Shown: positions 4,677-56,635, counted from the stretch's first letter. The stretch is DNA of 64,000 bases from an uncultured Eubacteriales bacterium (GCA_934433485.1 CAKRZR010000004.1:68913-132912); one strand, 5' to 3'. A program made the numbers and translations. The notes: generated by a model not told the origin, from the letters alone.

Positions 4677-5030
4677 ATGGCAAGAATTAAGGGCGCGCTG
4701 ATGACGCGTAAAAGAAGAAATAAGGTTCTGAAGGCTGCTAAGGGTTACTGGGGTTCTAAGAGCAAGCACTTTAAGATGGCGAAGCAGGCCGTCATGAAGA
4801 GCGGCAACTACGCATATATCGGCAGAAAGCAGAAGAAGAGAGAATTTCGTCAGCTCTGGATTGCCCGTATTTCCGCGCAGGCAAAGGTGAACGGCATGAA
4901 CTATTCTCAGCTGATGCACGGTCTGAAGAAGGCGGGCATCAACCTGAACAGAAAAATGCTGGCTGAAATCGCCGTTGCCGATAAGGAAGCATTTGCTGCA
5001 ATCGTTGCTAAGGCAAAGGCTGCTCTCTAA
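4677..5030 (+). CDS. rplT: 50S ribosomal protein L20
   Basis: [29 protein letters not shown].. Confidence 0.92.
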
Positions 5031-5131: not shown

Positions 5132-6013
5132 ATGAAAATTGTATATCGCATAGATCGATCGGACAATGGACAATTACACATGACAAAAGAACTGTTTATC
5201 GACCGCTATCAGGCGGAATACTGGAAATCCAGAACCGGCGCAACGGTTATGAAGCTGTCGAAGCTTGGTGACGCAAAATATCGCAGAGAAACGGGGCTGT
5301 ATCTGGCGGAAGGAATCAAACTGACGGAGGAAGCGCTCCGGCATAGCCATGTACAGACCGTTGTGGTCTCTGAGGAGGCGCTGACCGGTGCGAATACCGG
5401 CGCGATTCTAACACTCACCGACGGCGCGAAAAACGCGGGATGCGCCATTGCGCTTGCGTCCGCAGAGGCTTTTTCAAAGATTTCCACCGAAAACGCGCCG
5501 CAGGGAATTCTTGCCGTGCTGCCGGTACCGGAGCGTTGCGTACCGATATTCGCGGAAAACGGGCGGTATTTATTGCTGGATACGATTCAGGATCCCGGCA
5601 ATCTCGGCACCATTCTCCGTTCTGCGTCCGCGTTTGGCGTCACCGGGGTTGTCACCTGCGGCTGCGCGGATCTCACCTCTCCGAAAACGGTACGCGCCTC
5701 GATGGGTGCTGTGTTCCGTGTGCCGGTTTGGAGCGTGGAGTCATTGGCGGATGCTGTGCAAACCCTGCGCGGAAAGCATCGTGTACTGGCTGCGGCGCTT
5801 TCGGAAAATTGTCTCTGTGTCGGTCAGACTCCGCTTATGCCAAACGACTGCGTAGTCATCGGTAATGAGGGGCACGGCATCGCACCGGAGATCATCGCGG
5901 CTTGCTCGGATGTGATCCGCATTCCCATGACCGGCGAAACAGAGAGCCTGAACGCCTCCATCGCAGCGTCGATTTTGCTGTGGGAATACATGCGTACGTT
6001 CCCACAAACGTAA
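5132..6013 (+). CDS. TrmH/SpoU-family RNA 2'-O-methyltransferase (RlmB-like)
   Basis: SpoU methylase motifs LLLDTIQDPGNLGTILRSASAFG, IGNEGHGI and ESLNASIAASILLWE. The start is uncertain (5132, 5180 or later); none has a strong RBS. Confidence 0.8.
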   Translation: MKIVYRIDRSDNGQLHMTKELFIDRYQAEYWKSRTGATVMKLSKLGDAKYRRETGLYLAEGIKLTEEALRHSHVQTVVVSEEALTGANTGAILTLTDGAKNAGCAIALASAEAFSKISTENAPQGILAVLPVPERCVPIFAENGRYLLLDTIQDPGNLGTILRSASAFGVTGVVTCGCADLTSPKTVRASMGAVFRVPVWSVESLADAVQTLRGKHRVLAAALSENCLCVGQTPLMPNDCVVIGNEGHGIAPEIIAACSDVIRIPMTGETESLNASIAASILLWEYMRTFPQT

Positions 6014-46049: not shown

Positions 46050-46424
46050 GGGGACGTAAAGGTTTCGACGGGGATTTTGCAGTACGATAAGCGGGTAGAG
46101 CCGGGGAATCTCTTAAAAAGCTCCAACCTTAAACTAAACGCTAACGACGATTTAGCACTGGCCGCCTAAGTGCGGTCTGTCCGCCGGGGGAATGCTGCGA
46201 CCCTCGGATGTCCCGTTTCGGGAAGTACCCCCTTTGGTACTGGCATCATGCAGCAGCGTCCGTGAACGGTGAGTTCGCATTTGTAACCGTCATGCACTAA
46301 ATTGCTACTGACCGCGGAAGCCTGACGACCGGCGTCTGCGGCAGGAAACACAAAAGACCGTCTGCACCCGGAGAAAGTCGTATGAATAGGTTTTCGGACA
46401 GGGGTTCGACTCCCCTCGTCTCCA
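46050..46424 (+). ncRNA. ssrA: tmRNA (transfer-messenger RNA), CCA not encoded
   Basis: The 5' end GGGGACGTAAAGGTTTCGACGGGGAT and the 3' end GGACAGGGGTTCGACTCCCCTCGTCTCCA form the acceptor stem GGGGACG/CGTCTCC with a T-arm. The tag ORF gct aac gac gat tta gca ctg gcc gcc taa (46140-46169) encodes ANDDLALAA. It lies immediately downstream of smpB. Confidence 0.92.
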
Positions 46425-46443
46425 TCTAAGCAATCCGAATACA

Positions 46444-53184: not shown

Positions 53185-53818
53185 GTCACTTCTCCTTTTT
53201 CTATCTCTTTCTTGTTTATATTAATAGCGTTTGTAAGCCGCATCTCGGTTAGTTTTAACTAACCGCTGTGCTTTCAAAAAGCCGCTGATGCGGCTTTTCG
53301 TACGGATTGATCGAGTACTTTTTGGCTCTGCTGCGTAAAATATTATAGCACAGGAATGCCTGATTGTCAATTCGTCAGGGTATGTTTCTAAACCAAAATC
53401 CATGCAGGTTTTCTGCGCTCCTCTTGCAAAATGCGCGCAAATCTGACATAATATAGCTATGGATACTTTGAATGAATCGGTTTTTGCGATAAAAGGCCGA
53501 AATATAGAGGCTTTTGTCGCCAAACATAACGCAGAGTATTGTATTCCCCCGAAATCCAATACTGTCAAACCGTGACACTGCGACACAGGGATTTCACTCT
53601 CTGCCGCCCAATGCACTTCAGAACAGTTGAACAGAAGAGCTGTCGGTTCTTCAGGGTTTTCACTGTACTGTCCCTGCTTCTGTGCAGGTTGGTTAAACAA
53701 ACTTCTGAGGCAGCCAAGCGTGCCAAGAACTTTTTTCTGAAATCTGAACCTTTTATTGTTTGATTCCGACTATATATATGAAATTGATTTCAAAACCGTA
53801 TGCAAAGGAGGTGCTCAT

Positions 53819-54644
53819 GTGGATGCATTGGAAAAGCTGTTACAGGAAAATCTGATCCCGCTGCAGCGCTATGTACATTTTAAAATTCAAAACAGGCAGG
53901 ACGCGGAAGATATCATACAGGATGTATGCCTTACCGCCGCGCTGAAATTTGACACACTGCATCGTCCAGAAGCTTTCAAGGCGTGGCTGATCGGCATTGC
54001 CAGACACAAATGCCTGGATTATTACAGACGGAAAGCGGCGGAGCCGAATATCTCCCTGGACACACTGCCGGAATCCGCTTTGCGCGTATGGCTCGGAGTT
54101 GGATCGCCTGGTATTACGGAACGCAGCATGGTGCGTGACACGATGGATTCTCTCGGCGACAAGGAAAAGCAGATTTTATATCTGTTTTTCTTTTCGGAAT
54201 CTGTCGCAGAAAGACATTTCGCGCAAGCTTGGTATCCCCATTGGAGCCGCAAAAAGCTGCCTGCATTCCGCAAGAAATCAATTCCGCTCCATGTGTTCCC
54301 CCGAAAACATTCTGCTGCTTGAGAAAGGAAGAAAATCCATGCCAAGAAAAGACCATACGCACGGCTTCTCGTCTGTAATGCCTGCCGTATCCATCGAAAA
54401 ATCAACCGCGCCGTTTTTTGAGGTGCGATGCGAGGAGCAGTGGTTTAGTATCCCGCGCGTCGGCAATCAATGCGCGGAAGCGACATACCGCTATCCGGAT
54501 AAGAAGCTTGTTATCGTGCCCAATTGTTATGTGCCGAAATCCTGTCTGGTTCATGATGTGCCCGGTGTGAAAATCTGTTGCGACCATACATTGTCCGGCG
54601 TAAAAAGCTATATAAAAACGAAAAAATATGGTTTGTCCAGCTGA
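53819..54644 (+). pseudogene. ECF sigma factor interrupted by a frameshift in a T5CT4 run, with a Cys-rich C-terminal extension
   Basis: Region 2 (DAEDIIQDVCLTAALKFDTLHRPEAFKAWLIGIARHKCLDYYRRKA) is in frame 2. Region 4 (FRNLSQKDISRKLGIPIGAAKSCLHSARNQFRS) is in the +1 frame. The junction is at tttttcttttcgg (54185-54197). A GTG start at 53819 follows an AAAGGAGGTG RBS. Confidence 0.6.
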
Positions 54645-55120
54645 CAAACGAGTATATCCGTAATCTCGGAACGATCTTCGACGATGAAGGTTGTGACGAG
54701 CCGACACAGGTATCCATATTTCTGGAGGAAAGCTATGACGTGCTTGTCAACGGCAACGACCGCGTTTTCGGAATCCCCGTCCTTATAAAGGGAAACGCAG
54801 CGGAAGCATCCGGAAACGGCTATACAATCGCCGCAGAAAATGTCCGGTATACGCTCGGCGTATGGAATGTCACGATAGGAAGCCGCACGTTTGAAACGAT
54901 AAAATGTATCCTTACGCAGAACGATTCCTGTGAAGAAACCTATATCGACAGAAACGGCCGGGTGGTTCTGCTGCGTCAATACGAGTGGAGCGAGAATCTC
55001 GCCGCAAACGATTATTACTCCGACAGCGATCGAGATGCCATGCAGGAAAACGCCGTTATTTTCGTAAACGGGGATCCGTATATCCATACGGAAGACAGAA
55101 TCAGCGAATATGTGCTCTGA
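54578..55120 (+). CDS. Hypothetical protein
   Basis: A 180-aa ORF with no recognisable motifs. Confidence 0.4.
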   Translation: MRPYIVRRKKLYKNEKIWFVQLTNEYIRNLGTIFDDEGCDEPTQVSIFLEESYDVLVNGNDRVFGIPVLIKGNAAEASGNGYTIAAENVRYTLGVWNVTIGSRTFETIKCILTQNDSCEETYIDRNGRVVLLRQYEWSENLAANDYYSDSDRDAMQENAVIFVNGDPYIHTEDRISEYVL

Positions 55121-55149
55121 TCCCTGCGTATGCTGCGGAAAAAGCAAAA

Positions 55150-55190
55150 GCGACCGGGTTATCCGAAAAAGGATAGCCCGGTCGCTTCTT
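55150..55190 (+). terminator. Rho-independent terminator hairpin (15-bp stem)
   Basis: gcgaccgggttatcc gaaaaa ggatagcccggtcgc followed by ttctt. Confidence 0.55.
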
Positions 55191-55191
55191 A

Positions 55192-55830
55192 GTGCGCCTG
55201 GTGAGCGCACGTTCTCTAGGGTGAAAGACCCGAAGTCGCCCGGTAGCGGGAAGACATAGCCAAAGGCAAGGGTGTCCGTCGTGAGGCGGAATCTGAAGAA
55301 AGCCGGATTTCAGGGGTTAAAAGGTCTCCTGAAGGGCAAAACTCTGGCCTGACGAACAGAAATCGCATACAAGGCCGTAAATGAGGGTGAGTTTGCCAGA
55401 CAAAACAAAGCCCAGTAGCTACACGGAATCATCTACGGTAAATGCGGCAGGTAAAGAGGGAAAGAACGTGTGAGTACCCGGGGAGGTGTTGCCGACGCAA
55501 AAAAAATGCGCAGTAACAACGAACGGCAAGAAGTCAGCAGAGGCCATAGTACCGGAGTTTTTTTACCGGAAAGGGCCGAACAATCGTTAGCCCCAAATAG
55601 ATTACAGAAGGAGGTCAACATGAAGAACGCAGAAAATCAGGGCAACCTGAGCTGCCCGCAAAGAGCGAGTGCGGAACACGAAGGGTATGCGGGAGCGCAG
55701 AGTTACGAGTCTCTGCACTTATGCGATTGAACCGCCGTGTACCGAACGGTACGCACGGTGGTGTGAGAGGTCGGGGCTATTTTTGGTTCCTCCTACTCGA
55801 TCGCTGTTTTTGCGATCCCTCTATGAAACC
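55192..55830 (+). ncRNA. Candidate large structured RNA (~640 nt, ORF-free): group II intron-like (class C-like, ORF-less) ribozyme candidate
   Basis: It starts with GUGCGCC immediately 3' of a terminator hairpin. Near the 3' end, a domain-V-like hairpin (55732-55761) reads CCGCCGU-GUACC-GAAC-GGUAC-(GC bulge)-ACGGUGG, with a CGC triad, a 2-nt bulge on the 3' strand and a 4-nt loop (GAAC, not a canonical GNRA). There is no credible ORF on either strand, and it lies between convergent genes. Confidence 0.3.
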
Positions 55831-55840
55831 ACAATATGGG

Positions 55841-56635
55841 TTACCGCAGACCGTGTCTTGCCAAAACCTCCATAACGGCGGCAGGATGGTTGGTTGTGAT
55901 CAGCTCACCGCCGTTTTCATATCCATGGTGAATCTGTTCCTCTGTGACCGCGTTTGCACCGACCCAGGGATGGATGCCCTTTGCGCGTACCTCATCGTAT
56001 TGCGCCTTGCTGCAAATCGGATCCTCATGCCAGGTGGAACGACCGTTTTCGTCATAGGATGCATTGAACATGCAGATGCAGTAGAGCACATCCCGCGCGG
56101 CAGTGTTGCCCATGATCTGGTAGGGATAATAGCCATGCAGGCGGTATTTGTGCCCATAGGTTTTGTCGATCCAAAGCAGCAGCTCGCCTTCAAAGCTGTT
56201 GATGAACAGACGGTCCGCAAGACCGTATTCTTCAAAAAGCGCAATGGTTTTGGACGCGCTCTCCAGGGCAAATGCTTCGCCTTTGTCGTGGATGTAATCC
56301 TTAAACTCAAAATTGAACTGCATTTTGTCGTCGCGCCGGGTCAGCTCCAGAAACTCGCGGAAGGTTGGAATACGTGTTCCTTGAAACTTGGCATCTGTCC
56401 GGATACCGAAATCGAGCCGTTTCAGCTCTGATAACGTCATATCCGATACAAGACCATGTCCGTCAGAGGTGCGATCCACGGTGGGATCGTGGATGACAAC
56501 GATTTCTCCGTCCTTGGTCATATGTAGATCCAGTTCGATCATGTCCACGCCGAGCGCATAGGCGCTTTCAAAGGCGGGCATGGTGTTTTCCGGGAATCCT
56601 TCCACATTCCCGCGGTGCGCAGCTACTTCCATCAT
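55841..56635 (-). CDS. Glycerophosphodiester phosphodiesterase (GDPD family)
   Basis: MMEVAAHRGNVEGFPENTMPAF..IELDLHMTKDGEIVVIHD; the start at 56635 follows an AAAGGTG RBS. Confidence 0.82.
   Translation of the reverse strand: MMEVAAHRGNVEGFPENTMPAFESAYALGVDMIELDLHMTKDGEIVVIHDPTVDRTSDGHGLVSDMTLSELKRLDFGIRTDAKFQGTRIPTFREFLELTRRDDKMQFNFEFKDYIHDKGEAFALESASKTIALFEEYGLADRLFINSFEGELLLWIDKTYGHKYRLHGYYPYQIMGNTAARDVLYCICMFNASYDENGRSTWHEDPICSKAQYDEVRAKGIHPWVGANAVTEEQIHHGYENGGELITTNHPAAVMEVLARHGLR

Follow-up and report, generated by a model that had tools for sequence, protein, structure and literature searches.

An ORF-less class IIC group II intron behind a terminator-like hairpin, most likely a decaying relic, in an uncultured Eubacteriales bacterium

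What occupies the 720-nt intergenic gap at 55121–55840 in the 64,000-nucleotide (64-kb) stretch of Eubacteriales DNA that was analysed here, which we refer to as the window? The gap lies between a plus-strand ORF ending at 55120 and, on its downstream side, a convergent GDPD gene on the minus strand whose stop codon is at 55841–43. The original prediction held that this gap contains an ORF-less element related to class C group II introns, situated directly after a terminator, or alternatively a large RNA of the ROOL, GOLLD or OLE type. It proposed a covariance-model scan and a check of folding and covariation to distinguish the two. Our analyses indicate that nucleotides 55192–55801 are almost certainly an ORF-less class IIC group II intron, and the first of these two readings was borne out by covariance models, by full-length relatives, by the IIC proteins of those relatives and by the hairpin context of 25 of 25 relatives.

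The window was scanned against Rfam in two ways, over its whole length at gathering thresholds with fast filters and, for positions 55000–56000, permissively at E≤10. The group-II-D1D4-3 model (RF02001) matched 55275–55472 with 131.5 bits (cut-off 32) and the group-II-D1D4-1 model (RF01998) matched 55509–55576 with 50.2 bits (cut-off 35). The Intron_gpII model for domains V and VI (D5-D6; RF00029) matched 55730–55801 with 43.5 bits (cut-off 40) in the permissive scan and was absent from the whole-window gathering scan with fast filters. The E-values over 1 kb were 1e-28, 7e-08 and 5e-07, respectively. All three matches were on the plus strand and in the correct order, so that the proposed covariance-model scan returned a group II intron.

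The folding and covariation analyses gave the same result. The predicted fold of the 610-nt RNA was better than those of all 20 shuffled sequences (z = -3.0), and the structure of 55192–55801 is thus beyond chance. In an alignment of domains V and VI from 11 copies, 99.6% of cells were paired and compensatory changes were present in 8 of 25 pairs, a level of covariation that none of 500 shuffles reached; when the pairing register was slid, only 37–50% of cells were paired in any register. All 13 pairs of domain V formed in the 11 relatives, two of them with compensatory changes, while the 12 pairs of domain VI included six with compensatory changes and had 99.2% of cells paired.

Table 1. Features of the intron and of its 5' exon, in window coordinates
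Feature	Position	Strand	Basis or detail
Terminator-like hairpin of the 5' exon	55148-55187	+	17 bp including one G-U pair
GC-rich hairpin core	55150-55164 paired with 55171-55185	+	15 bp; sequence
Hairpin loop	55165-55170	+	6 nt; sequence
Exon tail CUUA, between hairpin and intron	55188-55191	+	sequence
Complete ORF-less class IIC group II intron, 610 nt	55192-55801	+	GUGCG to CUCGAU; Rfam RF02001, RF01998 and RF00029 in order
Domain I (3' limit approximate)	55192-55484	+	RF02001 match; alignment with 17 relatives
Lineage-specific extra stem-loop in domain I	about 55307-55333	+	alignment
EBS1 (CAGACA), in terminal loop of ID3 hairpin	55397-55402	+	homology to O.i.I1 and covariation
Domain II	55488-55530	+	UUGCCG 55489-94 pairs with CGGCAA 55524-29; RF01998, alignment
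Domain III	55543-55576	+	RF01998 match
Domain IV remnant, 147 nt	55582-55728	+	basal helix AAUCG 55582-86 / CGAUU 55724-28
GGAGG ribosome-binding site, in domain IV	55610-14	+	sequence
36-codon remnant ORF	55620-55730	+	MKNAENQGNLSCPQRASAEHEGYAGAQS followed by YESLHLCD; first 28 and last 8 codons of the intron RT/maturase
Deletion junction	between T55703 and T55704	+	1284 nt = 428 codons missing, in frame
Domain V	55731-55762	+	RF00029; CGC triad 55733-35, G55734-U55759 wobble
Domain V details		+	2-nt bulge 55752-53 (3' strand), 4-bp upper helix, GAAC loop 55744-47
Domain VI	55765-55798	+	bulged A 55795; 3' splice site after U55801; RF00029 alignment

All six ribozyme domains are present and in order (Table 1), and domain V and the core of domain VI are intact. 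The hairpin that had been likened to domain V (55732–55761, with a CGC triad, a 2-nt bulge and a GAAC loop) is present and lies within the RF00029 match. Its loop is indeed GAAC, but what had been taken as an oddity, a non-canonical tetraloop, is normal for this lineage and was found in 8 of the 11 aligned D5-D6 sequences. The domain V sequence is identical in the window copy and in two relatives that carry a protein gene (L008 and L034, described below). Departures from the relatives were also observed: two G-C pairs of their domain VI are G-U pairs in the window copy, and G55488 stands in place of a C that is invariant in the relatives, which breaks the basal pair of domain II.

The 3' end of the intron reads ...CCUA(55795)CUCGAU(55801), which places the bulged A 7 nt from the 3' end. 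An ending of the CUCGAU type was found in 13 of the 14 copies whose 3' end could be read, the exception being L032 (...CUCAAU). This RF00029 boundary, together with the alignment of the relatives, shortens the element from the end at about 55830 that had been proposed for it. At the 5' end, all relatives have GUGYG at the corresponding alignment position, in one case as GUGUG. Both ends of the intron are covered by 94% identity to the full-length introns L033–L035, and in two further copies, L031 and L032, homology to the window begins at 55186, that is, at the intron 5' boundary if a shared T-rich tail is allowed for.

As had been predicted, GUGCG (55192–55196) begins 6 nt past a 15-bp stem, or 4 nt past the stem when this is counted as 17 bp. 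The stem-loop is present, with a predicted energy of -34 kcal/mol (RNAfold), but the description of it as a terminator was not supported in full: a strict terminator scan did not call the hairpin at 55148–55187 because there are only four T between it and the intron start. We therefore consider "terminator-like" to be the safer wording.

The region just upstream of the hairpin contains two overlapping candidate ORFs, 54578–55120 on the plus strand and 54608–55210 on the minus strand, neither of which matched a Pfam family. The minus-strand ORF (159 aa) is the one chosen by public gene calls, while the product of the plus-strand ORF looks more protein-like. Because the coding strand at 54578–55120 is uncertain, it is not certain which gene the hairpin would terminate. 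Further upstream, an ECF-type sigma factor gene at 53756–54644 (plus strand) appears frameshifted, with sigma factor region 2 (Pfam Sigma70_r2) in the frame 53756–54322 and region 4 in the frame 53997–54644. The corresponding region of L029, which is 99.4% identical, encodes a single 146-aa sigma factor product with both regions. Either the gene of the window strain is a pseudogene or its assembly contains an error, and the plus-strand ORF that precedes 54578–55120 may join the latter via another frameshift near 54600.

The intron was assigned to class IIC based on the hairpin context of 25 relatives, the affinity of the relatives' proteins, the CGC triad of domain V and its likeness to the intron O.i.I1. 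BLAST searches of plasmids and phages produced hundreds of partial relatives, some of which overlap genes annotated as ltrA, and a domain I pattern search added three viral and 21 genome loci. In all 25 relatives a strong hairpin forms within the 55 nt before GUGYG (-13 to -40 kcal/mol), and between its end and the intron there are 0–7 nt. A position behind intrinsic terminators is what the literature gives as the hallmark of class C (IIC) introns (PMC4424553, PMC4748821). The window intron is also compact, being about 463 nt long when domain IV is left out.

The window copy itself has no protein, and we used P0001, the 464-aa protein of its nearest full-length relatives (L033–L035), as a reference. 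Only Pfam RVT_1 (PF00078) and GIIM (PF08388) matched P0001, and TIGR04416 matched with 425 bits. P0001 aligned far better with the solved GsI-IIC RT (2e-117) and with the solved group II intron RT/maturase 7UIM (1e-112) than with the IIA protein LtrA (only 3e-43) or the solved maturase RT 6ME0 (2e-41), and the protein of a plasmid relative had the same IIC-favouring pattern of matches. Proteins of the P0001 type are very abundant, with 8000 matches in public genomes and metagenomes; the best 120 of these were all at least 74% identical, and 119 of the 120 at least 80%.

Comparison with the model IIC introns O.i.I1 (Oceanobacillus iheyensis) and B.h.I1 (Bacillus halodurans) showed that, like the window copy, both are compact GUGYG ribozymes with a CGC triad and are inserted just past a hairpin of the Rho-independent-terminator type. 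EBS1 is in the same terminal loop in O.i.I1 and the window. The GAAC loop and the order of the conserved domain I blocks presumably match O.i.I1 as well. The D4-D5 segment of the window (TTGAACCGCCGTGTACCGA) is nearly identical to that of O.i.I1 (CTTGAACCGCCGTATACCGA, as printed in PMC4748821). Unlike these two introns, the window copy has no protein gene, keeps a 147-nt domain IV, has the extra domain I stem-loop, and has an EBS1 that is unpaired with its present exon. ORF-less versions of O.i.I1 have been made by hand as laboratory constructs (486 nt, PMC4748821), whereas the deletion in the window is natural.

The loss of the protein gene could be followed against close relatives. L008, from an Oscillospiraceae MAG (CAVHFE010000170.1), is 91% identical over intron positions 1–512 and 94% identical over positions 513–610, and carries an extra 1284 nt between the two aligned halves (L008 positions 1284–2567). 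L033–L035 are 94–95% identical and again differ by 1284 nt, the missing segment being positions 1110–2393 of L034. These introns share identical domain V and a like hairpin context with the window copy, and carry the 464-aa RT/maturase from which it lacks 428 codons. A 19-nt deletion in domain II that was suggested by the alignment with L008 proved to be a peculiarity of L008 itself, as over positions 1–512 L034, which is 94% identical, shows just one gap and a length difference of 3 nt with respect to the window.

A tblastn search of the whole window with P0001 found residues 1–28 only, at 55620–55703, so no reverse transcriptase is encoded in the 64 kb, in agreement with the original prediction; nor did blastn find a second copy of the intron in the window. 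The prediction that the element has no plausible ORF was correct for long ORFs. It is not strictly ORF-free, since a 36-codon stub remains, which is preceded by a GGAGG ribosome-binding site 6 nt upstream and is annotated as a gene in public assemblies. Other members of this intron lineage have lost protein sequence independently. L021 (about 685–1851) lacks the N-terminal 211 residues, and L006 (7443–8824, reverse strand) is a 1382-nt copy without residues 168–354. The third, L003 (1479–2118), is a 640-nt ORF-less copy on plasmid pDSM4216 of Bacillus smithii. L003 matches the same three Rfam models, also follows a hairpin with a T-run, and is only 68–83% identical to the window copy over three aligning stretches; its loss is independent and left no detectable protein remnant.

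EBS1 was identified as CAGACA through its homology to AUAACA of O.i.I1, for which the complementary 5' exon is UGUUAU (PMC4748821); it comprises the six bases that follow UGC in the ID3 loop. A blind search for EBS1 by complementarity had failed because the exons are U-rich. Among 14 relatives, 86% of the pairings of EBS1 with the intron's own exon had at least three contiguous pairs counted from position -1, versus 4% of cross-pairings. The EBS1 of L033–L035 and L008 is AGCACA and pairs with their own exons, and that of L003 pairs at four of four positions. By contrast, CAGACA of the window copy forms no contiguous pairs from -1 with its own exon (...CUUCUUA), and two of four overall. This mismatch bears on the activity and history of the window copy and not on its identity. 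No informative alignment column was found for EBS3-IBS3, as the 3' exons begin with C or U and any conserved G would pair with both.

Signs of sequence decay were seen in the window copy and in its sister copies. Among 157 columns of domains I to III that are invariant in 13 relatives, the window copy has three substitutions, versus none in L008 and L034. The sister copy L031 has seven changes at invariant columns, including one in the invariant GACGAACAG block, and its divergence from the window is 1.1% within the intron versus about 0.4% in the flank. In the other sister copy, L032, 12 nt of the EBS1 hairpin (AGTTTGCCAGAC) are tandemly duplicated, the insertion following the base equivalent to window 55389.

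Copies of the deleted intron were found only at the GDPD locus. Exact look-up of the 36-aa stub in public assemblies gave six contigs that we read, all at this locus, and a search of metagenome contigs with the junction pattern gave one match, L036, again at the GDPD locus; the pattern was not found in viral contigs. L036 breaks inside the intron, its position 1 corresponding to window 55571 at the border of domains III and IV, and most contigs with full-length relatives are only 1.5–3.5 kb long. Both features are what is typically seen where assemblies break at multi-copy repeats. Look-ups with the GDPD protein or with fucosidase yielded no empty (intron-less) site, L038 ending short of it; the predicted empty-site sequences are ...GGTCGCTTCTTA joined to CGCTGTTTTTGCG, and ...GTTCTCTTTTTTA joined to CGCTGTTTTTGCG.

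The deleted intron occurs with two 5' flanks. In the window, L029 and L030, it follows the sigma-factor/unknown-gene cluster and the hairpin at 55148–55187. In L031 (MAG GCA_964310665.1) and L032 the deleted intron instead follows a MocA-family oxidoreductase gene and a different, canonical terminator (AAAAAAGAGAACGGCACAGTCTGTGTCGTTCTCTTTTTT; L031 1636–1676, L032 1780–1820). The 3' flank of these two copies is that of the window (98.1–99.5% identical), the 5' flanks are unrelated, and the upstream DNA of L031 is absent from the 64-kb window. It is possible that two intron copies at different terminators recombined, that there was a second insertion in trans beside the same gene, or that contigs were mis-joined across a repeat in two independent assemblies. 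Either recombination or a mis-join would require that the intron, or its 5' part, is present at least once more somewhere, and a second insertion would imply past mobility in trans. The unrelated 5' flanks thus hint at more copies or at past mobility.

Taking these data together, we favour, with a probability of roughly 0.85, a history in which a class IIC intron inserted after a terminator-like hairpin, later lost its RT via one deletion, and is now most likely an immobile, decaying relic. The intron would have arrived by retrotransposition a few nucleotides after the hairpin, and a single in-frame deletion of 1284 nt in domain IV would later have removed almost the whole RT/maturase gene. 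The relic would now be decaying slowly and be inherited vertically at a single locus. Transcription would reach it only by reading through the upstream hairpin and, as a non-autonomous element, it would not be reverse transcribed on its own. Excision by hydrolysis, or by branching with a helper, would probably occur only if another source in the cell supplied a related intron protein. Since the two genes that flank the intron are convergent, its splicing would be unneeded by, and irrelevant to, the expression of host genes. That the window copy is now an immobile relic seems probable to us, but the state of the ribozyme counts against it: the core is essentially intact, domain V is unchanged, and the changes in domain VI stay paired as G-U. 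As judged from the sequence, an intact core of this kind is compatible with possible ribozyme activity.

The principal rival explanation, which we regard as unlikely, is that the deleted intron is an active non-autonomous retroelement, with a related IIC RT/maturase in the same cell binding to domain IVa, splicing the intron and moving it to new terminators. Its catalytic parts are all intact, and the 5' part of domain IV has been kept, including the ribosome-binding site and the start codon; by analogy with the IIA protein LtrA, this 5' part of domain IV would be the main binding site of the protein. Proteins close to P0001 are very common in public genomes and metagenomes, and the deleted copy lies behind two different terminators in different assemblies. 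However, those two 5' flanks have a common 3' flank, which a true second insertion would not normally give, and the deleted copy was found at no other locus in the stub look-up or in the scans of viral and metagenome contigs. EBS1 matches neither 5' exon at -1, the sister copies L031 and L032 bear damaging changes, and no helper protein is encoded in the 64-kb window. Genome coverage was limited to these 64 kb, and a helper protein may be encoded elsewhere. ORF-less bacterial group II introns are about 600 nt long, are derived from protein-coding relatives, are presumed to use proteins in trans, and are almost always accompanied by related introns, the proteins of which may act on them (PMC4424553, citing Simon et al. 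2008; PMC12350094 for phage cases). The genomes of those literature cases also hold related full-length introns, whereas the window organism is known here from 64 kb only. We would speculate, as a rather improbable variant, that the deleted intron is a natural non-autonomous IIC element that is mobilised in trans by a related protein or recombines with other copies. Either process would explain how one deleted copy came to lie at two unrelated terminators, joined exactly at the 5' boundary, and would represent natural helper-dependent spread of a group II intron, or intron-driven genome rearrangement, in a gut Clostridia-type bacterium.

The other explanations that we considered are far less probable than the relic described above. 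It is very improbable that the host has taken the intron over, either to give the convergent GDPD gene a structured spacer or an antisense 3' UTR, or as a recombination hotspot. The intron does separate the GDPD stop (55841) from the hairpin, so that GDPD transcripts must cross it in antisense to reach the hairpin; it has been kept in those assemblies of the locus that extend as far as the intron, with flanks that are 98.1–100% identical, and the 5' flank changes exactly at the intron boundary. Against these points, the intron is no more conserved than its flanks, as the comparison with L031 showed, and antisense terminator-like sites in it are at chance level (two found versus 1.5 expected). 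One such hairpin, with a T-run, is at 55640–55657 on the minus strand, inside domain IV and on the path of GDPD read-through. We consider it still less probable that the 36-aa ORF encodes a functional small protein and that the surrounding RNA is only its leader and trailer. The GGAGG site is suitably placed in that it lies 6 nt upstream, the ORF is in frame and gene callers do call it, but it is merely what is left of the intron protein, its first 28 codons joined to its last 8, it has no reverse-transcriptase or maturase domain and no NCBIfam family match, and a deletion would be in frame by chance in one case in three. Finally, a different large structured RNA was suggested only by size and by the absence of a long ORF; the three group II models match strongly instead, and ROOL, GOLLD, OLE, RNase P and raiA were rejected, with no Rfam match in 55000–56000 even at E≤10. 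We give this alternative, which had been part of the original prediction, almost no weight.

Group II introns of about 600 nt without an ORF are already known from bacteria and have been described as rare (PMC4424553, PMC12350094); the window copy adds one, and it leaves the current understanding of group II introns unchanged. Only two things set this copy apart: a natural deletion that is cleanly documented, and the switch of flank at the intron boundary. The exact in-frame deletion, which can be read against 94%-identical relatives, makes this intron a clean natural example of the loss of a protein gene, and the flank switch is a possible case of intron-mediated recombination. The main consequence concerns annotation: "ORF-less group II intron" is the label that the element should carry, and the 36-aa "gene" of public assemblies is no more than a remnant of the intron protein.

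Two minor observations were made during these searches. The plasmid of Peptoclostridium acidaminophilum (L001, about 4818–4962) contains a second group II intron, with the start GTGTGCC, that takes the expected place of domain VI of the first intron, beginning about 2 nt past its domain V. This second intron matches the Rfam D1D4-2 model at 4846–4962 and has its own ltrA gene, which starts at 5339; L027 (about 5764 onward) has the same arrangement. In these cases, domain V of one intron seems to have served another intron as the target hairpin. The second observation concerns the window itself, which contains a tmRNA gene at 46050–46427 on the plus strand (Rfam RF00023, 150.3 bits, full length).
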